From a bacterium (GTDB lineage: Bacteria > Patescibacteriota > Dojkabacteria > SC72), in NCBI GenBank assembly GCA_021107795.1, contig JAIOSB010000027.1:290-64289 (forward strand): 64,000 nucleotides of DNA. The letters run 5' to 3'. Positions 8,771 to 50,732 of the stretch are shown here, piece by piece. The notes beneath the pieces were generated by a model. It was given only the letters and a program-made list of their open reading frames with translations, was not told the DNA's origin and did no database searches. A program made the position numbers and the translations under genes. Positions within the stretch are counted from its first letter, which is position 1; every line of letters starts with the position of its first letter.

Positions 8771-9940
8771 TTATATTTCTTTGGCATATTTACCATATAC
8801 CCAACCCTCTTTATCTTGCCCAAAGAGTATTTGATACCAACCTTCCTCTTCTTTTACTACAATATATACCTCCCCATCGTTCGCAACATCTATTTTCTCG
8901 CAGCTATACCACCTACATTCCCTTATATTCACGAACCCAAACTCTGGAGAGACCATTTTTACTAATGTATTATCACCTTTGGTTACAGTAAACTCAACCA
9001 CAAATTCAGAGTCTGAGAAGACTTCCTTCTTGAATTTGTAAATCTCGAATGTTTCTACATTTTCTCCGGGTAATACCTTAGGATCTAACTTAAATGTCAT
9101 CTCTATACTTTCTCCTGGTAGTACATATCTGTCAGAAGAAATATGTGTTGGTTTACTAAAACTGTCCCACTCCCCATTAAGAGCATATATACTTTCTTTA
9201 GAATCTTTCACTGATATATATATTGGGTATTTATCAGAAAGCCATACAAAGTCATTTCCATTCTTTATAGTTACTTTAACTTGCAGTGTATTCCCTATCT
9301 CTACAGCCTCTTCATATTCTACACTCTCAATCTCAGCTACATACTCCAAGTGTTCTCTCTCACTAACCTTCCATTCTTCTAGGCTATCACCAATTGATGA
9401 CTTAAACAGGTTGTTGGATTCCACTAGCTCAAGTTTTGAGAGAGTGGCTTCTGATTCTACGATATTGAAAGAATGGCTGTCATATTGAGTAATTCCATAT
9501 TTGTGAGATAGGTCATTCGCAAGTTCTAGAATGGAGGATTTTGCTTTACTACTTACTTGTGCATTATTCGATAGATATGCTACTACAATATATTTTGCAT
9601 CTGTAAGTTTTAAAGTATCTACATTTTGTGTACTGAATATATCTCCATTTTCATCAATTGCGTAGTGGAAAGGTATATTTCCTAGTTTCAGTTTTGTAAT
9701 TGAGTAGTAATATGTTACATCAAGGTAATCTTCTGTACTTAGGTTTAAGGTGTCGTAACTTCCCTCAACTTGCGTAAAGAGGATTTTAGTTGGTTGTTGG
9801 TATTGATATTCTACACCAGCGACTAGAGAAGTATCAAAATCGGAGTATGATTCTTCATATCCTAATATTGGAGTAGTAAATATTGCAAGGAAAAGGATTG
9901 TTAGTAAGATATTTTTAATTTTCATATCACATTGTACCAA
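8771..9940 (-). CDS. Secreted protein with C-terminal SH3b-like domain; possible cell-wall binding. An amidase_2-like N-region is uncertain.
   Basis: Signal peptide MKIKNILLTILFLAIFTTPILG, so the true start may be Met6. The C-terminus FVNIRECRWYSCEKIDV..GEVYIVVKEEEGWYQILFGQDKEGWVYGKY fits the bacterial SH3 pattern. The FHYAIDENGDIF...VVAYLSNN segment only weakly resembles amidase_2. Confidence 0.4.
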   Translation of the reverse strand: MVQCDMKIKNILLTILFLAIFTTPILGYEESYSDFDTSLVAGVEYQYQQPTKILFTQVEGSYDTLNLSTEDYLDVTYYYSITKLKLGNIPFHYAIDENGDIFSTQNVDTLKLTDAKYIVVAYLSNNAQVSSKAKSSILELANDLSHKYGITQYDSHSFNIVESEATLSKLELVESNNLFKSSIGDSLEEWKVSEREHLEYVAEIESVEYEEAVEIGNTLQVKVTIKNGNDFVWLSDKYPIYISVKDSKESIYALNGEWDSFSKPTHISSDRYVLPGESIEMTFKLDPKVLPGENVETFEIYKFKKEVFSDSEFVVEFTVTKGDNTLVKMVSPEFGFVNIRECRWYSCEKIDVANDGEVYIVVKEEEGWYQILFGQDKEGWVYGKYAKEI

Positions 9941-10882
9941 TTATTCTACACTTTTGACATATTCAGGATCAATTGCATTCATGAATCCTACAAAAGGTAC
10001 ACTAAAGAGTTCTTTTTCATATTCAACATCACATACTCCTGAGATTTCGTAGGAGTAGTATAGGTAGTTTTGATTACAATTGACAAAGTAAAGGACTGGT
10101 TCAACCGTATTGATAGAACATTTTTCATATTTTAATTCCACATCCATTGTCTCATATGAAAACTCGTCAACTTCTATCATTCCAGTTGCATCAATGGTTA
10201 TACTTTTAGGATATTGAGGAGAGGAGAGATATAATTCTAAAACATTGGTTTCCGCTATCATGGGGACTATATATTCCGATTTCTCAATTTGTGCTAGTAA
10301 TACTCTCGCAGTACTTAAATATCCGTTTGTTAAATAGAAATAGTCAGAGCTACCCGAGCCTACTTTCACCTCTTTTTCATCGATAATTCTATTAACCCTA
10401 TACATCCTAAAATTTTCTCCTTCGTCTATGATAGGGGTAGTATATTTAATTGAAGTGTCTAAGTAAGTCGATATGAATTCTTCTATGGTGCCAAATCTTA
10501 TCGCTTCAGGATATTTCGTAAGATTTATCATAAGGACTGTAGTGTCAATATCATATCTTAATACCTCCGCATTATCTTTCTCCCATTTTACAAAATTCAT
10601 ATCAGAGGTCTTTTGCAAACTACTATCTATTTCAAATGCAAATTGGTCTAGATATTCTGGGATTGTGTTAGATTTACAAATATAGAGGGGGGAATCTCCT
10701 GATTCAAGTTCCACATCTATTCTAAGATTGTATTCCTTGTAATCACTGAGGTAGGGATTTGCATCTACTAGCTCACTTTCTAATACGTTTGGCTGGAGTA
10801 AAGAGTAAAGAAGGAATATTCCTGCAAGAAGCATTGTTACTACACCTACCACTATTAAGATTTTTAATGTTTTTTTATTCAT
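9941..10882 (-). CDS. Hypothetical membrane-anchored extracellular protein
   Basis: N-terminal TM (LKILIVVGVVTMLLAGIFLLYSLL); no recognisable domain; stop/start abuts neighbouring genes. Confidence 0.45.
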   Translation of the reverse strand: MNKKTLKILIVVGVVTMLLAGIFLLYSLLQPNVLESELVDANPYLSDYKEYNLRIDVELESGDSPLYICKSNTIPEYLDQFAFEIDSSLQKTSDMNFVKWEKDNAEVLRYDIDTTVLMINLTKYPEAIRFGTIEEFISTYLDTSIKYTTPIIDEGENFRMYRVNRIIDEKEVKVGSGSSDYFYLTNGYLSTARVLLAQIEKSEYIVPMIAETNVLELYLSSPQYPKSITIDATGMIEVDEFSYETMDVELKYEKCSINTVEPVLYFVNCNQNYLYYSYEISGVCDVEYEKELFSVPFVGFMNAIDPEYVKSVE

Positions 10883-10897
10883 AATTTTTATTAATTA

Positions 10898-13807
10898 TTA
10901 AGGACGACAAGGTGGACATTTTGATTCTGATTGAACTCCATTTACACAACCCATATCCACTAAGAAAGCGATAGGGTCAATATATTGACCGTTATGTGTT
11001 ATTGTAAGGTGTACATGAGCTCCTGTCCAGCAATAGAAAACCCCATTCTTATTAGGCCTGGTTGTCCCCAAAGGATCATCAGCAACTATCTCAGCTGCAT
11101 ATTGGTAGATATATGCGACTGGCTCACCAGCTTTGTAGTTACGACCATTTCCTGGAGGTATTAGTTTGGTATGCATGAGATTAAACACATTTCCCTGACC
11201 ATCACTGAACTCTATATTCCACCCAGTAAAACCACCGTCAGTACATCTCCATGCAGCCATGCTTGATAGTTTTGCTGTACAGGTAGAGGTGTCACAATAT
11301 TGTGGAGCGAAGAAAAACTTCATTCCTGCTAAGTCTACTGGGTATAGATTTGTAATATTCTTGTGAGAACACTTTGTATTACTAAATCCCTGAGTACAAC
11401 GATATTTGACATCACCAAATGGACAGCTAGAATTGGTTGGTGCAGGGATATTGATAGGAGGAGGAACAAAGTTACCACTAGAATACAGATAGCCAGAGCT
11501 AAATCCTCCATATCCTCCAAAACCTTTATTTTCGTATATGGTACCTGGTATTTCTCTAGAATATGAATCTACTGAGGCCCTATTGCTATACTCACTTGAA
11601 GCTCCAATTAACAATATTAGTCCAAATACCCCGACAAAAGCATAAACAATTACCTTTATCGACAACTTCGTAACTCCTTCCATAACCCAAGCTACTACCA
11701 CTGTCACGGCTGTACCCAAAGGACCTGCAATTGCAGTACCTGCAAGACCAAATGCTGCGACAATACCTTGAGATATAGCACTTGATAAGGCAGCTCCTCC
11801 TGTTGCCTTCCATGATGTCAATAAAGCCATAGCAGCTTTGTCTTTTGTAAAGAATTTAAGCTTAGAGAGAACAGAGAATACACCCTTTCTTATACCCGTT
11901 TGTACTTTCCCCAAGGTTTTTTCTTGAAATAGACTCAACATCCTTGCAGGTGTGCTAAATATAGCTGTAACTTTAGACCATTGTTCAAGTGCATTTGATA
12001 TTTTCTCAGCTTTAAAAAATTTTTTAGCAAAAGCACTGTTTTCATCCCCTAAACCTTTTAGAACATAGCCCAATATATTTCTGTATTTAGGTTCTTTGGC
12101 AAGCAATTGGATTTGTTCCGTAGAATTAAGTTTTTTGTATTTTTTATAAAATTTCCAGAATTTAGGATCTTGCAATTCTTTGAATACTCCAGACTTAACA
12201 CTCCACATTTTCTTGATTTCTATTTTTTTATTATCTGCCACCCATGCAAACCCTTCTCCTGTAAACATAGATTTTACCCAAGTTGCTGGGTTCATATAGT
12301 AAAATCGAACCATACCATCGTTGTATGCATCTCTTAAATTTCGCTTATATGAAATCTCTGCTGATTTTGATTTCACAAATTCTACTTTATTCCACTTCCC
12401 CTTGCCAATTAATATTGTACCCGCATTATCTACTGGGCAGCCATAATATCCTTTAATAGGGTTGTAGAAATCCCCATTGAGAATAGCTTCAATTCCTCCT
12501 GGTCCAAAAGTCTGTTTCACCCCATAATAAAGACCCTCAGCTGCTCCAATTCCACTCCACAATTGAACACTATTCAAAGATCTTCTCGTCGATCTTAATT
12601 GTTTAATATTCTTTTGAGCTACAGATATCTCAGCTCTCTTCTGTGATTTTGACAATTTGCCATAATCTATAAGATTACTACCTGTACCAAATGTCTTCCC
12701 ACTTCTAATAGCTTTTAATCGGTCTCTTAACTCTTCCTCGTTAGATCGGATATTGCTCTTTGCTCTCTTCAATTTAAAAAGTATTCCCTCATCTTTACTT
12801 CCATCAAGACTCTCTGCTCCCTTCATAGCCCTAGCATCGAGAGTGTCATACTTTTTCCATAACTCTAAGATATTATTCGAACTTTCTAGCTTATTATATT
12901 CCACCAATTCTTTTGCTGTTAGTTGAGACTTCGTCCTGTTACCTAACAAATCGTTTTGCCTTTCTTCAAACTCCAGACCTAAAAGGCTCCTAAATGTTTC
13001 AGCACTAGAAATTGTGTCGGTAATCTTATCTATATTATCTTGAGTGTCTTCCCACCGTTTACTATCCGTTTTCTTGTTCAAATTCTTCAAAGAGGCTTCT
13101 AATGCATTAATACCTTCCATACCATTAAGAGAATTAATCTGATTGGTTAACTTCTCCTTCAGCTCCTTTCCTTTCCTTGTATTTTCATCCACCTTGTTCT
13201 TTCTTGCAATTAATTTTCTAACGTCAGTCCTACTCACATATCCATCTTTTCTTAATTCTTCAGAGGCTCGTACAATCCATTGCCTATCTCTAGGACTTCC
13301 CGAATCTTGGGCTGCCTGTCCTACTGCTCTCTCAAGGGTATTTTTAAGATCCCCATACCCCTCGAATAGCCCCATCTTTTTGGCATATGTACTCCCTGCT
13401 AAATATCTCATAGCCTCACCAGCCCATCTGATATTCTCCATTTTAGATATGGTTTTGTTTGTCTCAAAGAGTTTGTCTATGAATTCATCAGGCTTCTCGA
13501 AGAAATCGGGTAACCCACTTGCTGTCAGCTTGACTACAGGTATACGACTAGTCTGTACTCCCACTTTGATAGTCGGATCAACCAGTCCTTGCATAGCTCC
13601 TAGGAATTGATCTCCCACAAACATCCCTGGCATAGCCAATGCATCTACCAAGGTTTGTACATACTCAGAACTTGCTTGACTATCTGCTGTTGGTGGAGGT
13701 CTTACTGGTTTCCTTTGCTCTGGAGGTAATTCAGATTGTTCCAGAACAAAACCTAGGATATCTGATACAGATGATATTGTTTTATCCTTACCCTTATATC
13801 CAGCCAT
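10898..13807 (-). CDS. Large bitopic protein: ~690-aa cytoplasmic coiled-coil-rich N-domain, 2 TM helices, extracellular C-terminal M23 (LytM-type) peptidase-like domain
   Basis: No signal peptide. The TM pair is ...IVAAFGLAGTAIAGPLGTAVTVVVAWV... / ...VIVYAFVGVFGLILLIGA... The C-terminus has the M23 pattern VFNLMHTKLIPPGNGRNYKAGEPVAYI...GTTRPNKNG...CWTGAHVHLTITHNGQYIDP (HxH with flanking Gly-rich loops). Confidence 0.55.
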   Translation of the reverse strand: MAGYKGKDKTISSVSDILGFVLEQSELPPEQRKPVRPPPTADSQASSEYVQTLVDALAMPGMFVGDQFLGAMQGLVDPTIKVGVQTSRIPVVKLTASGLPDFFEKPDEFIDKLFETNKTISKMENIRWAGEAMRYLAGSTYAKKMGLFEGYGDLKNTLERAVGQAAQDSGSPRDRQWIVRASEELRKDGYVSRTDVRKLIARKNKVDENTRKGKELKEKLTNQINSLNGMEGINALEASLKNLNKKTDSKRWEDTQDNIDKITDTISSAETFRSLLGLEFEERQNDLLGNRTKSQLTAKELVEYNKLESSNNILELWKKYDTLDARAMKGAESLDGSKDEGILFKLKRAKSNIRSNEEELRDRLKAIRSGKTFGTGSNLIDYGKLSKSQKRAEISVAQKNIKQLRSTRRSLNSVQLWSGIGAAEGLYYGVKQTFGPGGIEAILNGDFYNPIKGYYGCPVDNAGTILIGKGKWNKVEFVKSKSAEISYKRNLRDAYNDGMVRFYYMNPATWVKSMFTGEGFAWVADNKKIEIKKMWSVKSGVFKELQDPKFWKFYKKYKKLNSTEQIQLLAKEPKYRNILGYVLKGLGDENSAFAKKFFKAEKISNALEQWSKVTAIFSTPARMLSLFQEKTLGKVQTGIRKGVFSVLSKLKFFTKDKAAMALLTSWKATGGAALSSAISQGIVAAFGLAGTAIAGPLGTAVTVVVAWVMEGVTKLSIKVIVYAFVGVFGLILLIGASSEYSNRASVDSYSREIPGTIYENKGFGGYGGFSSGYLYSSGNFVPPPINIPAPTNSSCPFGDVKYRCTQGFSNTKCSHKNITNLYPVDLAGMKFFFAPQYCDTSTCTAKLSSMAAWRCTDGGFTGWNIEFSDGQGNVFNLMHTKLIPPGNGRNYKAGEPVAYIYQYAAEIVADDPLGTTRPNKNGVFYCWTGAHVHLTITHNGQYIDPIAFLVDMGCVNGVQSESKCPPCRP

Positions 13808-13817
13808 ATATTTTTAT

Positions 13818-15266
13818 TTACTTTATTAATTTCCCTAACAATGGAATTCCGCCCAAAGCCTGTTTTGCAGCTTGTGCTGCATCCCCTGCATCTTTTGAGG
13901 TCGTAGGTGGTAGTAAAACTTTAGCGTATACATCTGCTTTAGAAGCTATAAAGATGACGAAGATTTGTAATACAAAAATTAATAATCCACCAAGCAAGTC
14001 TTGACTCTGATCAATTTGCGCTGTTGTTTGAGGAAGTGTGAGCTTATCCGGTCCTGGTAGCGATAAACCACCATCGCTTACAGCATAAAGAACTCCTGGG
14101 ATATTAAGAATTGCAAATGTAATCGGATATACTAACACATTTCTCATAATACTTTTCATCCAATTGATAAAACTTGCACTTTGACCTGGAATAGCTGACA
14201 TAGCAATTTGGAAAGGACCTGTTATTACAGCAATTAGAATACCAATATATGCCTTTATTAAAGTTAGAAAAACCTTAAAAACACCGACTGTCACTACAGC
14301 TAAAATAGCCAATACCAAGATTAATCCTACAAGTCCAACGACGACACCTGTAAGAGGGGCTGCAATAAATCCAACGACAACACCTATAGCTGCAGTTCCA
14401 CCAACAAGACCCAGTAACCCACCCTTACCTCCAAAGTCTGCAAATTGAGTCATTTCTTCAAAAAGGCCTTCCGGTGTAAACGCCCTAAATATACTACCCA
14501 AACTTTCCAGTGTAATAGGGTCACTATATTCACTACTACTAAAAATATCTACTAGAAGGACCATCATGAGCCCTCCAATATCTATTATCACTCCCGCTAT
14601 TGCAAAACTAAAGGTAACCCCTATTAACGCAAGAATAATGTTTGGTAGAGTATTCCCAAGAGTCACTAATGTCTGTCCTCCTAGTTTACTTCTAAACATG
14701 ATCATGAATCCAACAACTATCATGATTAATATGAAGAATACATAAGTAATATTCCTAACCTGTGACCATAATCCACTGATACCAGTATTAACCAACTCAT
14801 CATATCCTGAGTCAAATCCACTAGTTGTAATACTTGCATACACAGAACTATCTGCCTGATAACCAGGTACCCACTCTTCTGCCAAATGCGCATATACATT
14901 AACAAGAGGTTGTGATTCGTATAAAGCATATACTCCATCGGATGTCATACCATATATACCTCTTTTCATGTCAGGCGATATCGTATCTGAGTCCAACATT
15001 GCTTGATAGTCTGAAGATATTTCTGGTGCTAGATAAATAATTGCATTAACCACTGCGGTATTGGCACTAACAGCCTGTGACCTAGCAGAGTTATACTCAT
15101 CTCCCTCTGCCCCCTGCCCCACATTCACAGCTTCTACAGTAGATCCATATGATCCACTAAGGTCTAAACCTGTGTATTCTTGAGCATACGCATTAGTAGA
15201 TAAGAAGAAGAAAGCTATAACAAGTACTGACCAAAACAAATCTTTATTAAATCTATTTATTTTCAT
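13818..15266 (-). CDS. Polytopic membrane protein, VirB6/TrbL-like topology (signal peptide, ~150-aa extracytoplasmic segment, ~7-8 Gly-rich TM helices)
   Basis: Signal peptide LFWSVLVIAFFFLSTNAYAQ, then hydrophilic Ser/Tyr-rich segment, then consecutive hydrophobic Gly-rich helices (GLLGLVGGTAAIGVVVGFIAAPLTGVVVGLVGLILVLAILAVV...). Confidence 0.4.
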   Translation of the reverse strand: MKINRFNKDLFWSVLVIAFFFLSTNAYAQEYTGLDLSGSYGSTVEAVNVGQGAEGDEYNSARSQAVSANTAVVNAIIYLAPEISSDYQAMLDSDTISPDMKRGIYGMTSDGVYALYESQPLVNVYAHLAEEWVPGYQADSSVYASITTSGFDSGYDELVNTGISGLWSQVRNITYVFFILIMIVVGFMIMFRSKLGGQTLVTLGNTLPNIILALIGVTFSFAIAGVIIDIGGLMMVLLVDIFSSSEYSDPITLESLGSIFRAFTPEGLFEEMTQFADFGGKGGLLGLVGGTAAIGVVVGFIAAPLTGVVVGLVGLILVLAILAVVTVGVFKVFLTLIKAYIGILIAVITGPFQIAMSAIPGQSASFINWMKSIMRNVLVYPITFAILNIPGVLYAVSDGGLSLPGPDKLTLPQTTAQIDQSQDLLGGLLIFVLQIFVIFIASKADVYAKVLLPPTTSKDAGDAAQAAKQALGGIPLLGKLIK

Positions 15267-15290: not shown

Positions 15291-16631
15291 TTACATCTTA
15301 TATACAGGATCTGTTCTATTCTCACTCTCCCATACATGAAAATTCATATAATCCATTCTATCAGGAAATACCTCCTGAGGCATATTATCATGTGACTGAA
15401 ATTCTAATTCTTGAGTAATATAGTCAATATCCCAAGCACAAGAAAGAGCCTTATTACCATATCCTCCAATATTTGCATAACAAGTTGTTAAGACATAAAT
15501 CTTCTGTGACTCATCAGCATTTGGAATTGAAAAACTTCCATTTCTTAACTTATTGAACTCCGTTACACACTTTCCATCAATACAATCTGCTTTACTACCC
15601 CAAGGAGACTCCATAATTACAACAATACTTGCAGTATTTATACAATTCTCATCTGCACCACTTATGCTAGAACACCTATCTGCATCAAAGATATTCATTA
15701 TTTCCTTAAAAAACGATATTACAATTTGCTTAAGACTTGGAGTACAACCTATCATCTCTGTATCTAAATCCATATTGATAAATGTAGTGTTCGTATCACA
15801 ATCATCTATACCATCATCTTCTTGCTCTGGAATATTTTCATAATATCCTGGATAATTCTGTGATTGACCCAATACATATGATCCAGACAAATATTTCTCT
15901 GGTGTCGGGTTAGAATAGTTTCTACAAGCTGCTCCACAATCATTAACTTGATACTTAGAGATAGAGATTTCACTTGTACCTGAGCCTTTGGCATTAGCAG
16001 TACCTTCAATGGAATAATTAATACCAAAAGATTTCGTTTTAGAAGCTTCCCCAGCATCTATAATAGCTTGTGTCTGAGTCTCTCCTGGGTACATATTCCC
16101 TGCAACCACTTCTTTATTAATCATCTCTCCCGCAGGTCTTAGTGTCCAGTGTTCAGTACCATCTTCTTCAGTAAATATTTGCCTAACAGATGAGTCCATA
16201 GTTGGAGATCCATTCAAAAGAGGTGGTACTTCGATACTAGTAAGAGAAATCGAAGCCTTTCTATCTACCATATCCCCTATACTCAGTTCTCTATCTTCTT
16301 TACCCATGTCCGCATCGAAAGAGAAAGTCCTAGCACATACTTTCTCGGAGGAATAGCTGTAGAAAGGAGTTACACATACATCCTGTTCTCCTAAAACCAT
16401 TCCTGGTTTAACCTCTCTAATCGGTTTGAAATTTTCATCTATTTCAAAGAACAAAGCTTGTTCCAATTGCCAGTCCTCTTCATTGGCCTCTACTTTCTCA
16501 CGAAGTACATACTCTTGAGTATCAGCTTGGATATGAGTAACCCTTTGTGTCTTGTTTATAACAAAAACCCCAAACAAAATAAGGAAAGATAAAAGAAGGA
16601 CAGGTTTTCGCGAATACAATTTCTTTGACAT
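15291..16631 (-). CDS. Cys-rich secreted/anchored hypothetical protein
   Basis: N-terminal TM (PVLLLSFLILFGVFVI), many paired cysteines (CGAAC, CDTNTT, CIDGKC), acidic. Confidence 0.45.
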   Translation of the reverse strand: MSKKLYSRKPVLLLSFLILFGVFVINKTQRVTHIQADTQEYVLREKVEANEEDWQLEQALFFEIDENFKPIREVKPGMVLGEQDVCVTPFYSYSSEKVCARTFSFDADMGKEDRELSIGDMVDRKASISLTSIEVPPLLNGSPTMDSSVRQIFTEEDGTEHWTLRPAGEMINKEVVAGNMYPGETQTQAIIDAGEASKTKSFGINYSIEGTANAKGSGTSEISISKYQVNDCGAACRNYSNPTPEKYLSGSYVLGQSQNYPGYYENIPEQEDDGIDDCDTNTTFINMDLDTEMIGCTPSLKQIVISFFKEIMNIFDADRCSSISGADENCINTASIVVIMESPWGSKADCIDGKCVTEFNKLRNGSFSIPNADESQKIYVLTTCYANIGGYGNKALSCAWDIDYITQELEFQSHDNMPQEVFPDRMDYMNFHVWESENRTDPVYKM

Positions 16632-16669: not shown

Positions 16670-18283
16670 TTAATCTATAAGAATGCCATAATCAGAAAGT
16701 AATGGGATTGAACTGTATGCTGAATTACTTGAATCAGAGACAGAGACTTCTACTTCTTCAGAAACAGCTTCTCCAACAGTCATTTCTGTAGCTGAAGGGT
16801 TTGTGAAATATTTAGAACTAAAGTTAACGATATCATCATTACTTTTATCGAAATATCCGCCCTCTGCATCTCTTGCTCCACCAATTGTCAAAATCCAAGA
16901 CCCTTCACTATCTACTAAGGTAGATATCGGGTAGCTTGTACCACTAGAACCAATACCGTCATTGTCCGTAAAGGTTGCAACAACAAGAGCATTTTTATAA
17001 TCCACAACCTCAAGAATACCTACAATGGTCTCAAACTGTGGAGGGCTGGATTGTGTAGCAAAAGTTTTTACTTCACCTTCATATTCATATACATCTTCTC
17101 CCGAGTATATTTCAAAAAAGTATGTTGTCTCTGGTTGTAATTGTGCAATCTCAATACTATGCAAGAAATATTCTCCTTGAGACGCTATACCATCTCTCTC
17201 ATCTCTCCCTTTATTAGACAAATCTGATGTAGTAGTTCCATACATTACATAGCCTTGTTGTGATTCCTTAGAGAACCATATTATCGAACAACTAACATCC
17301 GTAAGATTTGTAATCATTACACTCTCTACTCCATATACCTCCGGTTGAGAAGGCACTACTCCACTATTTGATACCATATCAATCCAAGCTAAATCACTCT
17401 TAAGTTCGTATAGGTTATCGGGAGTTTCATCTTCAATTTTCTCTTCTTCTTCTACCACAGGTACTACATATGAGTCTTTTTCTTCAATTATCATATCAGG
17501 TTTTTCACCTTCTTCTGTAGCTACAAGTTTCGTAGCGTCAGAGATATAGGTATCATATGGACTTCCAAAGATTACAAGCGTTTCCGTTAGTTTCATACTA
17601 GAATCAAAGATTGTCCCATATTGTCCTTCTACCACACCTGCATTCCCAACACTTGACACTCCCAGTATTACTAAGTCTGTTGAGTCTAACAGTGTATACA
17701 TACTCTTATCCTCAATACTTCTTAACGATGAGAGATCCACTAACCAGTTCCCATTGCTAGATGGAACAGTTGCTACTGGGTATGTCGTTTTGTCCTTGGG
17801 GAATATATATATTAGGGCATCGTCATCACTTATATCAGAGAGTTCTCCATGTACGGGTGTAGGGGTTGGAATATCTGCACTAATATTGGCTGTAGTAAAA
17901 CTAAACTCTTCCCCTTCTATATCTGTGTACATATCTTCTCCTGATATGATTTTAAAATCATATTCTGTATTTGGTTCTAAACTTTGAATTTCAACGTAGT
18001 GAGTATTTCTCTTCTCATTTCCCCTCTTATCTATCACTGGATTTTTCTCAGTTCCATTGAGTACAGGGATTACCGACCCTATTACTTCACTTTCAGTAGT
18101 CCATGTTACTGTGATGGAATTGGTAGTAAGGTTTGCAAGTATTGCATCTTTGGGTTGTGTATTTACTCCTGCATTTGTAAACCATCGTGCACCACTGTAT
18201 ATGGCAAAGAGTGTAAGAGGAATACCTAGTACCAGCGTAATTATTGTAGTTAGTTGCTTCTTTTGGTATGGAGTTATGTACAT
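16670..18283 (-). CDS. N-terminally anchored protein with two Fn3-like (purple-acid-phosphatase-N-like) domains
   Basis: TM anchor LTTIITLVLGIPLTLFAIYS. Repeat 1 is NSITVTWTTESEVIGSVIPVLNG...HYVEIQSLEPNTEYDFKIISG. Repeat 2 is CSIIWFSKESQQGYVMYG...LHSIEIAQLQPETTYFFEIYSG. Confidence 0.5.
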   Translation of the reverse strand: MYITPYQKKQLTTIITLVLGIPLTLFAIYSGARWFTNAGVNTQPKDAILANLTTNSITVTWTTESEVIGSVIPVLNGTEKNPVIDKRGNEKRNTHYVEIQSLEPNTEYDFKIISGEDMYTDIEGEEFSFTTANISADIPTPTPVHGELSDISDDDALIYIFPKDKTTYPVATVPSSNGNWLVDLSSLRSIEDKSMYTLLDSTDLVILGVSSVGNAGVVEGQYGTIFDSSMKLTETLVIFGSPYDTYISDATKLVATEEGEKPDMIIEEKDSYVVPVVEEEEKIEDETPDNLYELKSDLAWIDMVSNSGVVPSQPEVYGVESVMITNLTDVSCSIIWFSKESQQGYVMYGTTTSDLSNKGRDERDGIASQGEYFLHSIEIAQLQPETTYFFEIYSGEDVYEYEGEVKTFATQSSPPQFETIVGILEVVDYKNALVVATFTDNDGIGSSGTSYPISTLVDSEGSWILTIGGARDAEGGYFDKSNDDIVNFSSKYFTNPSATEMTVGEAVSEEVEVSVSDSSNSAYSSIPLLSDYGILID

Positions 18284-18390: not shown

Positions 18391-18879
18391 ATGAGTCAAG
18401 AGGATATTACATATGTATTTATAGATGCTCAGAATCTATATCTGGGTATAAGAGATCTAGGCTGGCATATTGATTATAGAAAACTCAATGTTTACCTGAA
18501 GGAAAAGTATCAAGCTCAATGTCTTTATATGTATATTGGATATCTGAAAGGAAATCAAAAGCTCTATACCAAACTTACACAGGCTGGTTTCGATATTATA
18601 TTCAAGGATACAGTGCGATATGGAAGAAACCGGGTTATTAAAGGTAACGTTGATGTAGATCTCACAGTAGATGTAATAAGAAAAGCATCCCTATACAACA
18701 AAGCCATTTTTATAAGTGCGGATGGGGATTTTTGTGCACTTTACAACTACCTTCTCAAAGAAAAAGGGAAAGAAATTTTAATACTAATCCCCAATATTTA
18801 TAAATATTCAAAGTTACTATTAAAATATAAGGGTAGACTAAGATTTATGAATGATTTGAGAGCCAAGATTGGGGAATAA
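18391..18879 (+). CDS. NYN-domain (LabA/DUF88-like PIN-fold) protein
   Basis: FIDAQNLY...GNVDVDLTVDV...FISADGDF acidic triad arrangement typical of NYN/LabA-like nucleases. Confidence 0.6.
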   Translation: MSQEDITYVFIDAQNLYLGIRDLGWHIDYRKLNVYLKEKYQAQCLYMYIGYLKGNQKLYTKLTQAGFDIIFKDTVRYGRNRVIKGNVDVDLTVDVIRKASLYNKAIFISADGDFCALYNYLLKEKGKEILILIPNIYKYSKLLLKYKGRLRFMNDLRAKIGE

Positions 18880-19014: not shown

Positions 19015-19329
19015 TTACTTCTTCATCCCTGAGAGAAACTCTGTAAGCGTAGTTAGTAATCCTGATATTTGTCTAACAGGTTGTATTACTGCTTGGTTTA
19101 CTTCTTCTACAGTCCCTTTTGTAGTACTTACCATTGCTTGAACATCATCAAGTATCACATTCGTCTTAATTAGTGTTTTGTTTGCTTCTTCAATGATCTT
19201 TGTACTACCCTGAACTACTCCTCTGGTATCTTTGGTAACCATACCTAGTTGGTAGAGTATGAATGTAAAGAATGCTACAGGTATCCCCATAAGTATCATC
19301 CAGTATATTGATGGTATTGTGTCGAACAT
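19015..19329 (-). CDS. Small single-TM membrane protein (DUF948-like?)
   Basis: 104 aa, one N-terminal TM (IYWMILMGIPVAFFTFILYQL) followed by a helical coiled-coil-like tail. Confidence 0.35.
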   Translation of the reverse strand: MFDTIPSIYWMILMGIPVAFFTFILYQLGMVTKDTRGVVQGSTKIIEEANKTLIKTNVILDDVQAMVSTTKGTVEEVNQAVIQPVRQISGLLTTLTEFLSGMKK

Positions 19330-19375: not shown

Positions 19376-22300
19376 CTAGTTATTACCACATTGACCATCT
19401 AATTCACCATCTGGATGCCATATTAATGATTTGCATGTACTGTCTTCTGGTTGAAAGCTAGATATTCTCACAAAGTAGCCATTTGATGTAGTTATTGGAT
19501 AATCAAAACCATATTCTGTTCCCTCAGAGACTTGCAACCCCTCAAACATACCTTTTGATACAGGCCACCATGTTATATTATCTGCAGTTAAGCCTGAGAT
19601 TCTATTCACTGAGTCAATGAGTGTACGTGCTGTAAATGCTTTAGTATACCCACTTACTCCGATTAAGTTCCAACCAGGTATAAAACTTACAGGTACATTC
19701 GTATTAATATCAAATCCAGGAATAGGTATTCTACTATTCCTAGTAGCTACTATCGCATATCCAAAGCCTGGTAGTAGAGGGAAGTCAGAGCCGGCAGGAG
19801 TTCCTGATTCTGTAGACTTACTCATAATCCCTCCCTTCCACGATCCGTTGGAGAAGTATGTTATCTGACTGATTACTTCAAATTGGCTATTAGCTTCTTC
19901 CAATAGTTGTTCTGCAGTGTAGGATTCCCCGACATTCAGTGCAGGATAGAAATCGAATGATACTAGGTTTAAGCCCTCTTTCAGCACTATATCATACGCA
20001 TTAGATACTTGATTGACACTTAGTTCCAGCACACTAGATGATACTAAGTAGTCTCCATTTGCCACATCAAATTTCCCGTCATTGTTTATATCTTTATAAT
20101 ATATATATTTATAGTCAGCATTATAGTATTGCACGACGTTCTCACTATCTGGTCTAATTACTTCATAGTAACCATCTTTAGTCACACTTAAAAACAGCTC
20201 TTCCGTCTCTTGGGCCGACACTTTAGGTGCTGAGAAAGAGGCGATTTCCTGGAGGATATTATCCAAATTTAATGTACTAGTTTCAGAACATTCTCCAAAC
20301 GGTACAATTTTATATCCAGCTACACATCCTTTACCAACTTCTTGTTTTTGTTTTACTCCAAACCCACTATCACAACAGACATACCCTTCTTTAACATACT
20401 CTGTATCGAATGTAGCTGTACCACCTCCTGTTTTTATAACTGTATTAAAACTCTCACCATATATGGTTTCTAAATCAGCTTTCTGACCACAGGCATTAAA
20501 TTGAACCTCTATATCCCCTTTTGAGGTCAGGCAGTAATATTGAAGACCCTCAATTTCCTCCAAAGGTAGTAACCAACGATCGTCAAAAGAATCTTTATTA
20601 AAATCTCCGAGACTTTGCTTTGTTGGAGTCGCATAAGGAGTCTCGACTGATGGCCCAGAATAGTAATAATAATCTCCATCATCATCCAGATATATGTAAT
20701 CTCCATTCCAAGTAGGACTACCAACGTCATTTGCTATCACAAGATCCTCCGTTATAGTCTCTCTTAAAAAGTACGAGGCAGAGACACACTCTTTATTACC
20801 GCACTCATCACAATTGATAATATTTCCTTCATCCTTATTGAAACAGTACATCTCGTTTTCCAAATTAACAGATTTCACTACCTTATCAGCACAATACTCA
20901 TAAAAGTCTACCGTTTCATACTCACATTGACCAATTCCAGTTGGGTAGTAATTAGGGATATATACATAGCTAGATTCCTTTTTTACATTATGACAACACT
21001 CTAAGGCAATCACTTCTCCACTATCATTAGTTACAAGAGGTGCGAAATCTTCTGCAGACAGATTCCCTGATAATGAAGATTCCTCACCCTCCTCATTTGA
21101 GACGCTAGGTTGGCACTGAAACCAGAAGGATTCGCAGGGTGTGCCGTAATCGTCCTGGCTGGGACAGTTTATGAGATCATAGTCTGTAGTATAGTCTGAG
21201 CAGCGGAGTTTTCCCTCCTCCTCTTGATCTACACTTTCCTTCGGTTTAGGAGAAGGTAGTCCAGGATTATTACCCATACACTCGCTTTTCTCTTTATCCC
21301 AATAACAACCTCCATAATAATTCTCATTACAAACAGTTTCTGTAGTATAACCACTACAACCAGTTATCTCAGGACCCTCTACTACAAGTTCTATCTTGTC
21401 CTCAAGAAATCCCATAATCTCAGCACTCCCCTGCAAATCTCCAATAATATCTTCATATTCCGACGAATCTACAACGTCGACATTACCTGATACACTGTTT
21501 TTAACAAGTTCTCCATCTAATAAAGTATAGAGATTCCCTGCAGCATCTACTACTTGATCCTCTCCTATAACCTTCTTTTCTCCATCAACCTCAACCATCT
21601 GCCTACCCCTCTCCATACACCCCGCAGGCTTTGGACAAAGAGCTTGCAATCGGATATTAAATTGGCGAACTCCATTCCATAGACAAGTCTTGTAACAAGG
21701 ACTTGTTGGTGCACAACCACCAGCAAGAATAGGTCCATAAGAGACTGTTTTCCCTTCACTGTCCTCACACCTTGCCTCATCCCATGCAGCATTGACATAA
21801 GGTATAAAGGATTCTAATAAATCCTCTGCATTATTCTCAAAATCTATATCCTCTTCACTATTACCCAAGATACTCTCTACAGGAATATCATCTGTTCCAA
21901 AGGTTATCATATAGCACTGCTTTGGAGTAAAAGACTCATATTGATAACAAACCTCACCATTCATACCATTTATATCATCAAATACAGAACCATTTAAATC
22001 TCTAAAAGCCCCCTTATCAATACTCCACCCACCCTCACTATTAGTAGAAGCTGAAAGTAAATTAGAAATCAAAACATTACTCTCATCTACTACCCCTACA
22101 AAAACCATAGAATCTTTAGAGTCATCCTCATACAACAATCCTCCCGTATCAAGCTTCATACCATAAATCTTCCCATACATTGGATTAGGGACCACCATCT
22201 CGACAACATCCTGTATAACAGTTGTAACAGAAAACTCACTGAGAGTATCAAAAGCATATTCATATGAGTTTGTCTTACTACTAGACCATAGGAGTGAACC

Positions 22301-22714
22301 ATTTGATAATACAAAATTGTAAATCTTTCCTTCTTCAAGACCTGAAACAGTAACATGATGAACGTAATATTTATTATTCTTTACCTTGTATTCATTCAAA
22401 CAGTCAATACTATCTACACCACTCTCAAGTGCATCATTATTCAAATCTTCAACACAACTGGCCTGGGCTAAAACAACATCTCTATCATCATATGCAAACC
22501 TAACACCATTACTCCAGTACATTACAAATCCCTGTGTAGGCTGATGTGTTAGCCAGGATATAGTTGCAGAAGATGCAGTAATATTGGTAACCCTGACATC
22601 ATATGCTTGGAGCTTATTGCCCTGTACAATATAGTAAACTAGATAAGAGAAGGATATTAGCACAATAACTGTTAAGAGTCCCAATCCAAACATCTTGCTT
22701 CTTTTCATATTCAA
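19376..22714 (-). CDS. Giant (1112 aa) Cys-rich surface protein with N-terminal anchor and Fn3-like (PAP-N-like) domain
   Basis: TM anchor FGLGLLTVIVLISFSYLVYYIV, then the Fn3-like signature VTNITASSATISWLTHQPTQGFVMYWSNG...HHVTVSGLEEGKIYNFVLSNG. After that come >40 cysteines in clustered pairs (CDECGNKEC, ECCHN, VCCDSG). Confidence 0.5.
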   Translation of the reverse strand: MNMKRSKMFGLGLLTVIVLISFSYLVYYIVQGNKLQAYDVRVTNITASSATISWLTHQPTQGFVMYWSNGVRFAYDDRDVVLAQASCVEDLNNDALESGVDSIDCLNEYKVKNNKYYVHHVTVSGLEEGKIYNFVLSNGSLLWSSSKTNSYEYAFDTLSEFSVTTVIQDVVEMVVPNPMYGKIYGMKLDTGGLLYEDDSKDSMVFVGVVDESNVLISNLLSASTNSEGGWSIDKGAFRDLNGSVFDDINGMNGEVCYQYESFTPKQCYMITFGTDDIPVESILGNSEEDIDFENNAEDLLESFIPYVNAAWDEARCEDSEGKTVSYGPILAGGCAPTSPCYKTCLWNGVRQFNIRLQALCPKPAGCMERGRQMVEVDGEKKVIGEDQVVDAAGNLYTLLDGELVKNSVSGNVDVVDSSEYEDIIGDLQGSAEIMGFLEDKIELVVEGPEITGCSGYTTETVCNENYYGGCYWDKEKSECMGNNPGLPSPKPKESVDQEEEGKLRCSDYTTDYDLINCPSQDDYGTPCESFWFQCQPSVSNEEGEESSLSGNLSAEDFAPLVTNDSGEVIALECCHNVKKESSYVYIPNYYPTGIGQCEYETVDFYEYCADKVVKSVNLENEMYCFNKDEGNIINCDECGNKECVSASYFLRETITEDLVIANDVGSPTWNGDYIYLDDDGDYYYYSGPSVETPYATPTKQSLGDFNKDSFDDRWLLPLEEIEGLQYYCLTSKGDIEVQFNACGQKADLETIYGESFNTVIKTGGGTATFDTEYVKEGYVCCDSGFGVKQKQEVGKGCVAGYKIVPFGECSETSTLNLDNILQEIASFSAPKVSAQETEELFLSVTKDGYYEVIRPDSENVVQYYNADYKYIYYKDINNDGKFDVANGDYLVSSSVLELSVNQVSNAYDIVLKEGLNLVSFDFYPALNVGESYTAEQLLEEANSQFEVISQITYFSNGSWKGGIMSKSTESGTPAGSDFPLLPGFGYAIVATRNSRIPIPGFDINTNVPVSFIPGWNLIGVSGYTKAFTARTLIDSVNRISGLTADNITWWPVSKGMFEGLQVSEGTEYGFDYPITTSNGYFVRISSFQPEDSTCKSLIWHPDGELDGQCGNN

Positions 22715-32445: not shown

Positions 32446-33240
32446 ATGCAAAGCGAGTGGAATATTCCAGAAGAACAGCCCAAGAAGGTCAGGAGAGCAA
32501 AGATTATCATATCAGTAGGACTTTCAATCCTTGGAGTAATAATAATACTTTCCCAAGCAATACCTCTCACTAAATCATATCTAGATGGTGTCATTGAACA
32601 AACTCGAGTAAAACTTATGAAAAACCCAGTACCTGATTCATACAAAGCATATATTGAAGAGGAATTTGCCTACTACGATCCAAGTAAGAGTTACTTCGCA
32701 AATTTAGAGGATAGGATAGAGGGGCTAACGTTTGAAGGTATATATACATACGATCCAAATACAAATACACAAAAGGAGATCATTATTGATGATGAATACT
32801 CAAAAGATATGTACATATTGATTGAGAGCGTAGGAATTGAAGATATCATAATCACATCAAATGTAGAAAGTACCGAAGAAAAGGTATATGACCAATATCT
32901 TAAAAGAGGTGTAGCACATTTCAAAGGAACACCCTTACCAGGGGACGGGGGAAATTCATTCATATATGGGCATAGCTCAGTAGAAAGCTTCTTCACTAGA
33001 CATCAGAATTTAGCAGAAACAATATTTACTAGACTTGAGGATGTTGATATTGGAAATGATGTATATATCAAAAGAGATGACAACCTTCTACACTACATCG
33101 TAAGGAAAAAGAAAATTGTCGAATCAGACGATTTCTCCATACTGAGCAATCAAGGAGACAAAGAGACAGTAACACTAATGACCTGTTGGCCTCTTGGAAT
33201 TGGAACAAAACGACTAGTAGTAGTGGCAGAAAGATATTAG
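32446..33240 (+). CDS. Sortase-family transpeptidase
   Basis: N-terminal TM anchor (IIISVGLSILGVIIILS), His in FIYGHSS, catalytic Cys in TLMTCWP (the TLxTC motif), and a conserved Arg near the C-terminus (RLVVVAERY). Confidence 0.7.
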   Translation: MQSEWNIPEEQPKKVRRAKIIISVGLSILGVIIILSQAIPLTKSYLDGVIEQTRVKLMKNPVPDSYKAYIEEEFAYYDPSKSYFANLEDRIEGLTFEGIYTYDPNTNTQKEIIIDDEYSKDMYILIESVGIEDIIITSNVESTEEKVYDQYLKRGVAHFKGTPLPGDGGNSFIYGHSSVESFFTRHQNLAETIFTRLEDVDIGNDVYIKRDDNLLHYIVRKKKIVESDDFSILSNQGDKETVTLMTCWPLGIGTKRLVVVAERY

Positions 33241-49910: not shown

Positions 49911-50732
49911 ATGAAACAACATCCAATACCACAAAACGTGCTAGATGTTGAGTTTAAACTCTTCACTAGATTCACAATCAAGGAATTTGCATACCTAGCA
50001 GCAGGGATAGTTAGTGGGTCACTCTTCCTTGTCCTAAACAAACAACTAGGTCTCCCCAGCCTCATTGCATGGCCATCATTTCTCACTCTCTCAGCCATTG
50101 GAGCATTCTTCGCATTAGTACCAATCAACGACCAAGGAGCAGATGAATTTATAAAAAATTACTTCACTGCGATAAAGAAACCAACTCAACGAGTATGGCT
50201 AAATGAACAAATGCAAAGTCAAAGAGTAAAACCAATAGTGAAAACAGAAGACGAAGGCAAAGGAAAGATCGTAGGAGGTAAAATTACAAAGAAAGAAAAA
50301 ACCTTCATTGAAAAACCGGGAGATGATATCCTTCAAGTACAAACATCCCAAACCACTACTAAGCCAGAACCAACGATACAACCCTCCAATTCTTTACCAC
50401 AAACCATTGTCATCGGACCTCAAAATATTTCTCAATATCAATTCGGCATAAAAAGTGTAAATAGACTACCTGGAAATATGAATATTTGGTTGACAGATAC
50501 AAATGACCGAGGACTTGCAAACATTCCAGTATATCTCAAAGACCAAAATGGGAAAGTCATATTCGCTAATAGAACAGGACAGAATGGATACTTCATATTA
50601 AACAAAATCCTCCCACAGGGTATATACCACATACAATTTGATCAACATACATATAAAATTCCAAATATTCAGTGGATATTAGAAAATACACAAAGTAAAA
50701 ACCCAATTAAAATTACAGCGAAACTCGCATGA
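49911..50732 (+). CDS. PrgI/VirB3-like T4SS membrane protein fused to a C-terminal transthyretin/carboxypeptidase-regulatory-like beta domain
   Basis: The N-terminus IPQNVLDVEFKLFTRFTIKEFAYLAAGIVSGSLFLVL...LIAWPSFLTLSAIGAFFALVPI matches the PrgI-family pattern (P.d...eDk..g.ft.rq..yl, two TM). The C-terminus NIWLTDTNDRGLANIPVYLKDQNGKVIFANRTGQNGYFILNKILPQGIYHIQF is a CarboxypepD_reg-like beta sandwich. Its stop overlaps the next start (ATGA). Confidence 0.5.
   Translation: MKQHPIPQNVLDVEFKLFTRFTIKEFAYLAAGIVSGSLFLVLNKQLGLPSLIAWPSFLTLSAIGAFFALVPINDQGADEFIKNYFTAIKKPTQRVWLNEQMQSQRVKPIVKTEDEGKGKIVGGKITKKEKTFIEKPGDDILQVQTSQTTTKPEPTIQPSNSLPQTIVIGPQNISQYQFGIKSVNRLPGNMNIWLTDTNDRGLANIPVYLKDQNGKVIFANRTGQNGYFILNKILPQGIYHIQFDQHTYKIPNIQWILENTQSKNPIKITAKLA

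Follow-up and report, generated by a model that had tools for sequence, protein, structure and literature searches.

A divergent VirB6-like protein encoded in a conserved envelope gene array of Dojkabacteria

Among the few machines that Patescibacteria have been shown to require for their epibiotic life is a type IV secretion system (T4SS). In two reports (PMC12102498 and PMC12857230), this system is described as composed of VirB4, TrsD, PrgI, VirB6, and VirB2-like pilins, as essential in "Ca. Southlakia epibionticum," and as one whose VirB6 subunit frequently goes undetected owing to its divergence; the former adds that VirB6 is hard to find in several patescibacterial classes. VirB6 is also described as conserved in all T4SSs (PMC12857230). 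A hypothetical protein of a Dojkabacteria genome, encoded beside a giant membrane protein with a peptidase domain, raises the question of whether it is a VirB6 subunit and, if so, what role it has in an array of envelope genes.

Layout of the 482-aa protein

We analyzed a 64,000-nucleotide stretch of contig JAIOSB010000027.1 (here, the window), in which positions 13818 to 15266 on the minus strand encode, from an ATG start, a 482-amino-acid (aa) protein deposited at NCBI as hypothetical protein K8R20_02915. This open reading frame (ORF) is a real gene, as shown by 259 homologues in a word index and by a family that counts 3,977 representatives at 50% identity.

The initial annotation had described a signal peptide, an extracytoplasmic segment of about 150 aa rich in Ser and Tyr, and seven or eight Gly-rich helices, a layout that our analysis confirmed. 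A Kyte-Doolittle scan located an N-terminal hydrophobic segment at residues 10 to 28 that ends in NAYA/QE, an AxA signal-peptidase motif. The signal peptide comprises residues 1 to 28 (15183 to 15266, minus strand), and F20, F21, N25, and A28 vary little or not at all among 31 aligned homologues. It is followed by an extracytoplasmic domain of about 140 aa (residues 29 to 165; 14772 to 15182, minus strand), which is rich in Ser, Tyr, Gly, and Ala and mostly helical, as judged from its composition and the helices of an AlphaFold2 (AF2) model, and which carries a conserved HLAxEWVPGY motif. Residues 30 to 175 consist of 13% Ser, 9.6% Gly, 9.6% Ala, and 8.9% Tyr. H127, L128, W132, and G135 are conserved in the homologue alignment. 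The length of this ectodomain differs among members of the wider family.

Common to the whole family is the hydrophobic core (residues 166 to 450; 13917 to 14771, minus strand), which carries the motifs GFMIMFRxKxGGQ and TFSFAIxG. Gly makes up 11.7% of residues 176 to 482. The Kyte-Doolittle scan placed hydrophobic helices at approximately residues 173 to 191, 199 to 245, 282 to 302, 307 to 330, 336 to 359, 377 to 395, and 424 to 442, and since segment 199 to 245 forms two helices in the AF2 model, the total is seven to eight, where at least five are expected of a VirB6/TrbL protein. This number need not equal that of membrane spans, because in the solved R388 VirB6 the membrane is crossed by two N-proximal helices only (PMC12857230). 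Within the core, the columns of a GP(350-351)...PG(360-361)...W369 motif (14160 to 14219, minus strand) are invariant in the family.

Sequence and fold likeness to VirB6

Searches of the 482-aa protein against Pfam, NCBIfam, and PHROGs found no family, PF04610 (TrbL/VirB6) included. The PomA match obtained in these comparisons (E 0.032, 13.5 bits versus a cut-off of 341) is noise. The comparison with PF04610, which the initial annotation had put forward as a check, thus gave a graded outcome: the protein itself is not matched, but 3 of 49 diverse family members are, below the cut-off, and PF04610 is the sole Pfam family matched by more than one of them. The best of these matches (P0196; E 5.4e-4, 20.2 bits, under the 25.9-bit cut-off) covers profile positions 33 to 176 of 215, and P0196 aligns to the 482-aa protein over its full length (E 1e-32).

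Profile-profile comparison was more telling. Using hhalign, we compared a family alignment (A2) with an alignment of 18 plasmid VirB6 sequences (A7) and obtained a match with a probability of 65.7%, an E value of 5.8e-5, and a score of 45.6, covering about 100 of the 482 residues. This score lies above those of all 23 controls, with reversed profiles reaching 18 to 21.5 and 20 column shuffles reaching 8.6 to 22.5. Alignment A1 against A7 gave an E value of 6.3e-4, and the probability falls to 28% with a narrower family alignment. The match pairs residues 343 to 455 with residues 173 to 271 of TrwI, the VirB6 of R388, and places the GP...W motif onto G180-P181...W199, the only invariant residues of VirB6, with the same 18-residue spacing from P to W. 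At the same time, identity to TrwI and other MPF_T VirB6 proteins is only 13 to 16%, and the likeness to PF04610 stays below the Pfam threshold. The core motif is therefore homologous to that of bona fide VirB6 proteins, a remote homology of moderate strength.

This signal emerged only once the VirB6 alignment had been widened by 12 plasmid homologues. A narrow TrwI-only profile, in which all sequences share more than 50% identity, matched the family with a probability of just 1.7%, and single TrwI, PrgH, and Orf15 sequences gave no significant match (1.7% or less). Similarity to Gram-positive ConG-type proteins, for which a comparison had been suggested initially, could not be demonstrated with the single PrgH and Orf15 sequences, whose probabilities against the family profile were 0.3 to 1.4%. 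HMMER profiles built from A1 and A2 retrieved no VirB6 chain from the PDB sequences, with chance matches at E 0.55 only.

The fold provided a second line of evidence. Predicted with no templates, the AF2 model is of medium confidence (pLDDT 67.8 overall and 78 to 91 over most of the core), and it forms a hydrophobic helix bundle as in the solved structures of TrwI and DotA. In a Foldseek search of 350,542 chains, TrwI chains occupied ranks 1 to 5 (prob 1.00 to 0.66) and DotA rank 10. The Foldseek E values of these VirB6-type matches are weak (0.05 to 0.3). Nevertheless, the fold searches placed DotA and TrwI/VirB6 at the top, and rank, coverage, and rmsd set these two apart from other structures with either method. 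ABC exporters and ZnT appeared with prob of at most 0.09 and TM of at most 0.15. A match to a transporter or flippase, the finding that would have spoken against a VirB6 identity, was looked for, and no transporter, flippase, or Wzy polymerase family appeared in any sequence or fold search of the protein.

Both structures differ from the 482-aa protein in several respects. TrwI and MPF_T VirB6/TraD share its hydrophobic multi-helix core, but the Dojkabacteria protein has in addition an N-terminal cleavable signal peptide and a helical ectodomain. DotA, known from the DotA-IcmX protochannel of the Legionella Dot/Icm system (PDB 9ngy), is an extended VirB6 that, like our protein, has a sizeable extracytoplasmic domain beside the core (PMC12857230). 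However, identity to DotA is 7%, DotA is at least 857 aa long, and its system is a diderm T4BSS through which effectors reach eukaryotic cells. It also has IcmX/VirB5 as a partner, whereas none was identified for the 482-aa protein.

Gene context in Dojkabacteria and in other Patescibacteria

The gene is part of an eight-gene array on the minus strand, the order of which is kept across Dojkabacteria, down to 28 to 40% identity. The array begins with a surface giant of 1,112 aa (19376 to 22714), assigned to it by synteny, which is anchored at its N terminus and whose N-terminal domain is FN3-like. Next come a 104-aa protein with an N-terminal transmembrane (TM) helix and a weak DUF948-like match (19015 to 19329; PF06103, E 1.6e-4, below the cut-off), syntenic in 52 of 80 related loci, and a 537-aa N-terminally anchored protein with two domains of the FN3/purple-acid-phosphatase-N type (16670 to 18283; PF16656, E 7.5e-17; PF00041, E 2e-7), syntenic in 57 of 80. 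A syntenic gene for a 446-aa N-terminally anchored, Cys-rich extracellular protein with no assigned fold (15291 to 16631) lies immediately upstream of the VirB6-like gene.

Immediately downstream is the gene for the 969-aa membrane giant (10898 to 13807, minus strand). The initial annotation had the two genes in the reverse order, with the VirB6-like gene starting 10 nucleotides (nt) after the stop of the giant's gene. Both are on the minus strand, and it is the VirB6-like gene that lies upstream; the 10-nt gap itself was correct, with ATAAAAATAT separating the TAA of the VirB6-like gene from the ATG of the 969-aa gene. The term peptidase giant was well chosen. The protein has a coiled-coil-rich cytoplasmic part of about 685 aa, two or three TM helices (residues 687 to 739), and, outside the cell, a Cys-rich M23 peptidase domain (nt 10901 to 11440); a profile of its C-terminal part against the PDB matched M23 peptidases (E 3.7e-6 and 9.7e-6), as well as LytM, ShyA, and LasA, and H, D, and H residues and an HxH motif are invariant. 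A multidomain wall hydrolase of the VirB1 type thus follows the gene directly, and the M23 giant is the next gene in 63 of the 80 related loci.

The array ends with two further genes on the same strand. Directly after the giant's gene, positions 9941 to 10882 encode a bitopic protein of 313 aa whose tandem extracellular domains are PepSY/YycH/YycI-like and which may regulate the M23 domain. We also considered this neighbor as a VirB8 homologue and rejected that assignment: its domains are PepSY/YycI-like, with no NTF2-like fold after the N-terminal TM helix, and no VirB8-like protein was found in the window. The last gene (8771 to 9940), syntenic in 50 of 80 loci, encodes a protein of 389 aa that is secreted or anchored and has a bacterial SH3 domain at its C terminus (PF08239, E 1.3e-7). 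A promoter and terminator scan from 6.5 to 23 kb gave counts at the shuffled expectation and is uninformative on whether these genes form an operon.

Recognizable T4SS genes lie elsewhere in the window, on the plus strand and flanked by housekeeping genes. They encode a PrgI-like (VirB3) protein with a C-terminal CarboxypepD_reg-like domain (49911 to 50732; PF12666, E 3.4e-6; E 4e-13 to the PrgI gene of locus L009), a 216-aa TraC-like protein (50729 to 51379; 42% identity, E 1e-48 to the PF26593 [TraC-like] gene of locus L097), and a 796-aa VirB4-like ATPase (51369 to 53759; PF19044, E 6.3e-28, with AAA_10, TraC_F_IV, and CagE_TrbE_VirB matches). Since it is placed between virB3 and virB4, as in the arrangement described in PMC12102498, the TraC-like protein is probably a TrsD-type component. 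This locus is chromosomal, and no relaxase domain was detected in any window protein scanned. It matches the chromosomal, relaxase-free Patescibacteria T4SS with VirB4, TrsD, and PrgI that PMC12102498 describes for "Ca. Southlakia epibionticum" ML1. The window holds no second family member or other VirB6 candidate, and a phmmer search with 13 pilins from loci L009 and L012 found no VirB2-like pilins (PF18895) among its ORFs of at least 50 aa. The ATPase locus is 36 kb away from the VirB6-like gene, and in 79 of 80 related Dojkabacteria loci neither VirB3 nor VirB4 is encoded within 10 kb of the family gene. A functional coupling between the two is therefore inferred rather than read from gene position.

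In other patescibacterial lineages, distant family members hold the VirB6 position of canonical T4SS loci, following an array of VirB2-like pilin genes. L097 starts with six or seven T4SS_pilin genes, which are followed by a family member (31% identity to the 482-aa protein, E 2e-27) and then by PrgI, TraC-like, VirB4, and dnaN. In L009, a pilin array and a giant precede the family member (E 9e-29), after which come an M23 giant, PrgI, and TraC-like, and the arrangement in L008 and L012 is similar. M23 or other hydrolase giants occur in or near T4SS loci of other classes that contain the family. By BLASTP, the 969-aa giant gave no significant match to the M23 giant of L009 (984 aa), so their equivalence is one of architecture only; the 313-aa protein compared with a 334-aa gene of L009 gave no significant match either. 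In contrast to these loci, the Dojkabacteria gene is away from virB4, in an envelope array, with no pilin array in the window. It differs in a similar manner from plasmid VirB6 genes, which have VirB5, VirB7, VirB9, VirB10, and EexN as neighbors, whereas the Dojkabacteria gene has none of these and is carried by a monoderm host.

A monoderm host is common to the systems of PrgH (pCF10), Orf15 (Tn916), ConG (ICEBs1), and TcpH (pCW3) as well. In Tn916, orf15 is followed by orf14, and in pCF10 prgH precedes prgK, so that a polytopic protein is encoded directly before or near a large multidomain wall hydrolase, a pairing mirrored by the VirB6-like gene and the M23 giant; PrgK has been reported to carry a LytM (M23) domain (PMC12857230). 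Unlike the Patescibacteria system, these Gram-positive systems are conjugative, with relaxases and coupling proteins.

Interpretation of the array

Three independent lines, namely, sequence profiles, fold, and gene context in other lineages, support the VirB6/TrbL-like identity originally proposed. Our data support the conclusion that the 482-aa protein is a new and very divergent member of VirB6, the central platform or channel subunit of T4SSs, and it probably serves the chromosomal, monoderm-type (MPF_FATA-like) T4SS that is found across Patescibacteria.

Other explanations have to be weighed against this one. The 482-aa protein has no match among curated families, and in L006 and L011 family members are preceded, at two or three genes upstream, by Wzy_C. 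This could be taken to mean that it is a polytopic membrane protein of a generic kind (for example, a solute transporter, flippase, or Wzy-like polymerase) and resembles VirB6 by a chance similarity of helical bundles. We find this highly improbable, given the outcome of the searches for such families and the low Foldseek prob of ABC exporters and ZnT, the prominence of both VirB6-type structures, a profile match at the level of the motif that exceeds every control, and a T4SS context that recurs in several lineages (L008, L009, L012, and L097). Scarcely more credible is a scenario in which the protein has no role in secretion and is instead a dedicated partner of the M23 giant, acting as a membrane scaffold or activator of this wall hydrolase in division or autolysis. 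The 10-nt spacing, the near-universal adjacency of the two genes in Dojkabacteria, and the putative PepSY/YycI-like regulator encoded right after the giant would all fit such a partnership, but family members in L097, L008, and L012 are found next to pilin arrays, PrgI, and VirB4 instead of an M23 giant. Furthermore, fold and motif match VirB6, and no hydrolase activators such as FtsX or EnvC appeared in the fold searches.

It is also conceivable, albeit unlikely, that the VirB6-type fold has been exapted in Dojkabacteria, where it would work without VirB4 as the platform of a separate envelope apparatus of FN3 giants, M23 giant, PepSY/YycI-like protein, and SH3 protein, dedicated to host attachment and wall cutting. 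An array order conserved throughout the lineage without an adjoining virB4, partners that are not standard T4SS parts, and a window in which pilin genes were not detected speak for this scenario. Against it, virB3, the TraC-like gene, and virB4 have been kept in the same window, where no other protein could take the place of VirB6, and a T4SS without this subunit would be unusual given its reported conservation. The family moreover resides inside T4SS loci in other classes, and these have hydrolase giants in or near them too.

Returning to a VirB6 subunit of the Patescibacteria T4SS, we propose the following mechanism by analogy with TrwI and DotA. After cleavage of the signal peptide, several copies of the 482-aa protein, probably five, would assemble via the conserved hydrophobic helices and form, on the outer face of the cytoplasmic membrane, a central platform or protochannel. 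This platform would sit above the complex of VirB3 (PrgI-like), TraC-like protein, and VirB4 ATPase encoded at 49.9 to 53.8 kb, and substrates, plus pilins if present, would cross it; the oligomeric state, physical coupling to VirB4, substrate, and direction of transport in this scheme are all inferred. In Dojkabacteria, the virB6-like gene has been separated from the virB4 locus and is probably cotranscribed with a module encoding two FN3 surface proteins, the 446-aa Cys-rich protein, the M23 giant, the PepSY/YycI-like protein, and the SH3 protein. Within this module, the role of the M23 giant would be to open peptidoglycan, the cell's own or that of a host, and the PepSY/YycI-like protein may restrain this peptidase. 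Since relaxases are generally absent, and in view of the Saccharibacteria precedent, the most likely use of the system is in interaction with a host or in uptake and not in conjugation.

This opens the way for a broader hypothesis, which we offer tentatively and regard as possible. In this scenario, the Dojkabacteria platform, uncoupled from the ATPase genes, has become part of a lineage-wide contact module, a T4SS variant for breaching the host wall in epibiotic feeding. The module would combine VirB6 and its helical ectodomain with FN3 giants that replace the pilin array, a giant with exchangeable hydrolase heads (M23 or HExxH), and a PepSY/YycI-like brake, and the wider family, of about 4,000 clusters at 50% identity, would be the VirB6 missing from patescibacterial classes in which published profile searches found few or none.

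For annotation, the assignment gives a supported VirB6 identity to a very large and previously unannotated family, and the motif GFMIMFRxK...TFSFAIxG...GP...PG...W could seed an improved profile for Patescibacteria genomes. T4SS parts in the Dojkabacteria lineage are split between loci and are missed by surveys of 20 genes on each side of virB4. Candidates for the extracellular part of the T4SS machine are the M23 membrane giant and the PepSY/YycI-like, FN3, and SH3 proteins.

A divergent membrane protein family

The 482-aa protein encoded at 13818-15266 (-) lies in chromosomal DNA of low GC content (~36%) that also carries the housekeeping genes for EF-G, PcrA, PNPase, IF-2, NusA, DnaJ, AlaRS and LepA. 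A hydropathy scan and the residue composition bear out the layout described in the initial annotation: a signal sequence (residues 10-28, ending between NAYA and QE) precedes a hydrophilic, Ser/Tyr-rich segment (residues 30-175; Ser 13%, Gly 9.6%, Ala 9.6%, Tyr 8.9%) and 7 to 8 hydrophobic helices between residues 173 and 442, with Gly making up 11.7% of the C-terminal 300 residues.

The identical NCBI entry is a "hypothetical protein" (K8R20_02915), and the protein has no meaningful match in Pfam, NCBIfam or PHROGs. None of its 259 word-indexed homologues carries a Pfam domain; those that are named belong to Candidatus Dojkabacteria, WS6 or Patescibacteria. An alignment of 31 homologues contains 55 invariant columns, including those of an ectodomain motif, HLAxEWVPGY, of two motifs at the first helices (GFMIMFRxKxGGQ and TFSFAIxG) and of a later one, GP...PG...W. 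When the profile of this alignment was run against 1.84 billion representatives with HMMER, 3,977 clusters at 50% identity matched, 1,503 of them at E ≤ 1e-30. Common to the family is the hydrophobic core, which spans profile positions of about 160-490, and the N-terminal ectodomains vary, the longest proteins reaching 878 aa. Some Patescibacteria carry two tandem paralogs (L006:8174-12535, of 593 aa and 845 aa, and L093:9677-14315, in loci of other genomes), and some Dojkabacteria genomes have a second copy on a separate contig (locus pairs L081/L087, L059/L080 and L083/L094).

Relationship to VirB6 in sequence and fold

The protein is homologous to VirB6, in keeping with the initial reading of it as VirB6/TrbL-like. 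The Pfam check proposed for that reading came out in part: the protein itself matches no Pfam family, but 3 of 49 diverse family members, scanned singly, matched PF04610 (TrbL/VirB6), the only Pfam family matched by more than one of them. In the best case, P0196, the match covers PF04610 positions 33-176 of 215 (E 5.4e-4) at 20.2 bits, below the cut-off of 25.9; P0196 itself aligns with our protein across ectodomain and core (E 1e-32).

Family HMMER profiles matched no VirB6 among PDB sequences, a profile-profile comparison with a narrow alignment of TrwI, the VirB6 of plasmid R388, was not significant, and PrgH and Tn916 Orf15, each compared with the family as a single sequence, gave nothing significant. 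After the VirB6 alignment had been broadened by 12 diverse plasmid VirB6/TraD proteins, hhalign with the diverse family alignment returned Prob 65.7%, E 5.8e-5 and a score of 45.6, above all controls (18-21.5 for reversed profiles, 8.6-22.5 for 20 column-shuffled VirB6 profiles); a narrower family alignment gave E 6.3e-4. The match pairs residues 343-455 with TrwI 173-271 and aligns TrwI P181 and W199 with the family-invariant P351 and W369. Only four columns of the VirB6 alignment are invariant (M1, D117, G180 and W199), and P181 is nearly so.

An AF2 model computed template-free from the alignment of 31 sequences (mean pLDDT 67.8, pTM 0.54; most of the hydrophobic core at 78-91) points the same way. 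Fold comparison ranked DotA from the Legionella DotA-IcmX protochannel first (11.1; 229) and TrwI/VirB6 from the R388 stalk second (8.2; 211 of 261); DotA is taken as the Dot/Icm homolog of VirB6 in a current review (PMC12857230). In a Foldseek search of 350,542 chains, TrwI chains took ranks 1 to 5 (prob 1.00-0.66, TM 0.32-0.46 on our protein) and DotA rank 10.

Gene neighborhoods and the secretion system

In the Dojkabacteria, the gene sits in an array that runs RsmB/RsmE, a 1,000- to 1,100-aa FN3 giant, a ~105-aa DUF948-like protein, a ~540-aa double-FN3 protein, a ~440-aa Cys-rich protein, the VirB6-like protein, a ~900- to 970-aa giant, a ~320-aa protein, a ~390-aa SH3 protein and PcrA. 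This order is constant in the near-identical contigs of the window, in a relative at 38% identity and in the majority of the 80 loci compared at species level; 63 of the 80 have a detectable giant immediately downstream of the VirB6-like gene. Gaps between genes of the window's array are 0-46 nt; a scan of the region for promoters and terminators was uninformative. The genes of the array share one direction, and its sole interruption is an NYN-domain (RNase-like) gene on the opposite strand, at 18391-18879 (+), which looks like a recent insertion, since only 2 of the 80 loci have it. Directly upstream of the VirB6-like gene, 15291-16631 (-) encodes a 446-aa, N-terminally anchored Cys-rich protein in which no family was detectable; it is syntenic in many Dojkabacteria and fast-diverging (23-31% identity beyond close relatives).

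The 969-aa giant (10898-13807 -) had been placed before the VirB6-like gene, and this order is reversed: 10 nt separate the TAA of the latter from the ATG of the giant, which therefore lies downstream. It has no signal peptide; ~685 cytoplasmic residues lead to 2 to 3 TM helices (687-739), and the C-terminal domain is rich in Cys. Its designation as a peptidase holds: searched against the PDB, a profile of 13 orthologous C termini matched peptidases of the M23 type (E 3.7e-6 and 9.7e-6; also LytM, ShyA and LasA), and H, D, H and HxH are invariant. This M23 domain is divergent and missed by Pfam. In two giants from related loci (L045:13187-13876 and L090:5652-6341) an HExxH (zincin-type) domain stands in its place, which suggests a common membrane-anchored body with exchangeable hydrolase heads. 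A VirB6-like gene followed by that of a large wall hydrolase is paralleled by orf15 and orf14 of Tn916, and likewise by prgH-(prgI-prgJ)-prgK of pCF10.

The model of the 313-aa protein (9941-10882 -), with a core pLDDT of 85-95, consists of a TM helix at the N terminus and α/β domains in tandem, which makes the protein PepSY/YycI-like and not VirB8-like. PepSY-type domains are known inhibitors and regulators of proteases or hydrolases, so this protein may serve to restrain the M23 domain of the giant.

The genes at 49911-53759 (+), between recF and a Lon-like AAA+ gene, encode the ATPase core of a T4SS of the Patescibacteria type. This core comprises a 273-aa PrgI-like VirB3 (PF12666; CarboxypepD_reg-like tail; E 4e-13 to the PrgI of L009), a 216-aa TraC-like protein that is probably TrsD-type (42% identical to its L097 counterpart, E 1e-48) and a 796-aa VirB4 (PF19044, E 6e-28). 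No VirB6, pilin or hydrolase gene adjoins it; the window holds a single member of the VirB6-like family and no detectable VirB2-like pilin.

In other Patescibacteria, family members stand within such loci. L097 has six or seven PF18895 T4SS_pilin genes, a family member (31% identity, E 2e-27), PrgI with a CarboxypepD_reg domain, TraC-like, VirB4 and dnaN; L009 opens with a sigma factor and a pilin array, followed by a 1,450-aa protein and the family member (E 9e-29); an M23 protein of 984 aa, a protein of 334 aa, PrgI and TraC-like come next. L008 and L012 share the pilin array, giant and family member arrangement, and L006 and L011 have family members beside dnaA-rnpA-yidC, where a published survey locates many Patescibacteria T4SS genes (PMC12102498). 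Loci of this type are those described for Patescibacteria T4SSs, with VirB4, TrsD, PrgI/VirB3, VirB6 and VirB2-like pilins (PMC12102498, PMC12857230). The pilin arrays, of six to eight divergent VirB2-like genes, lie at L008:2839-5947, L009:2453-5616, L012:3158-6287 and L097:3311-6668, directly upstream of the family members, with a 1,200- to 1,450-aa protein intervening in L008, L009 and L012; a divergently transcribed ECF-type sigma factor adjoins three of the four.

Interpretation and minor observations

The explanation that we consider most likely, and hold with fair confidence, makes this protein the VirB6 subunit of the T4SS in this bacterium, consistent with the DotA/TrwI fold matches, the hhalign result and the T4SS loci elsewhere. 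If it works like TrwI and DotA (PMC12857230), copies of it, probably five, would assemble into a central platform or protochannel that sits above the complex of VirB3, TraC-like protein and VirB4, with help from the envelope proteins of the surrounding genes, and the M23 giant would provide passage through peptidoglycan. Homology and gene context are results of the analysis; we infer the number of subunits, their link to VirB4, the substrate and the direction of transport.

A considerably less probable reading is that a platform of VirB6 fold was exapted for an envelope or attachment machine that works independently of VirB4; VirB4 is absent within 10 kb in all 80 loci and PrgI is present in one, and the window does encode both. 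The conserved adjacency of the giant would also suit a scaffold dedicated to the M23 hydrolase, a reading that we regard as improbable given the family members in pilin- and VirB4-containing loci. Slightly more improbable still is an unrelated transporter or flippase with a chance resemblance to VirB6; transporters score prob ≤0.09 in the Foldseek search.

VirB6 is already known from Patescibacteria T4SSs; a survey of 3,035 genomes detected it in only 480 proteins and called it "scarce or absent" in some classes (PMC12102498). New here is a highly divergent, unannotated member with three distinguishing features: its signal peptide and ectodomain are additions, its gene is detached from virB4, and the operon around it is conserved and noncanonical. 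The VirB6 assignment helps annotation and leaves current understanding intact. The neighboring genes become candidates for the extracellular portion of the Patescibacteria-type T4SS, a machine that is essential in Ca. Southlakia epibionticum (PMC12102498, PMC12857230).

Elsewhere in the window, 63355-63960 (-), near its end, encodes only the C-terminal third of GroEL (Cpn60 profile positions 331-488 of 490) from a TTG start; a frameshift, an in-frame stop codon or a misassembly may explain this. A 264-aa protein (32446-33240 +) carries a sortase-like TLMTC motif. Two large surface proteins with Big_7 and DUF11 domains are encoded nearby (34604-36466 + and 42142-43863 +); both are hydrophobic at the N terminus and again in a single C-terminal segment, which makes them possible sortase substrates.
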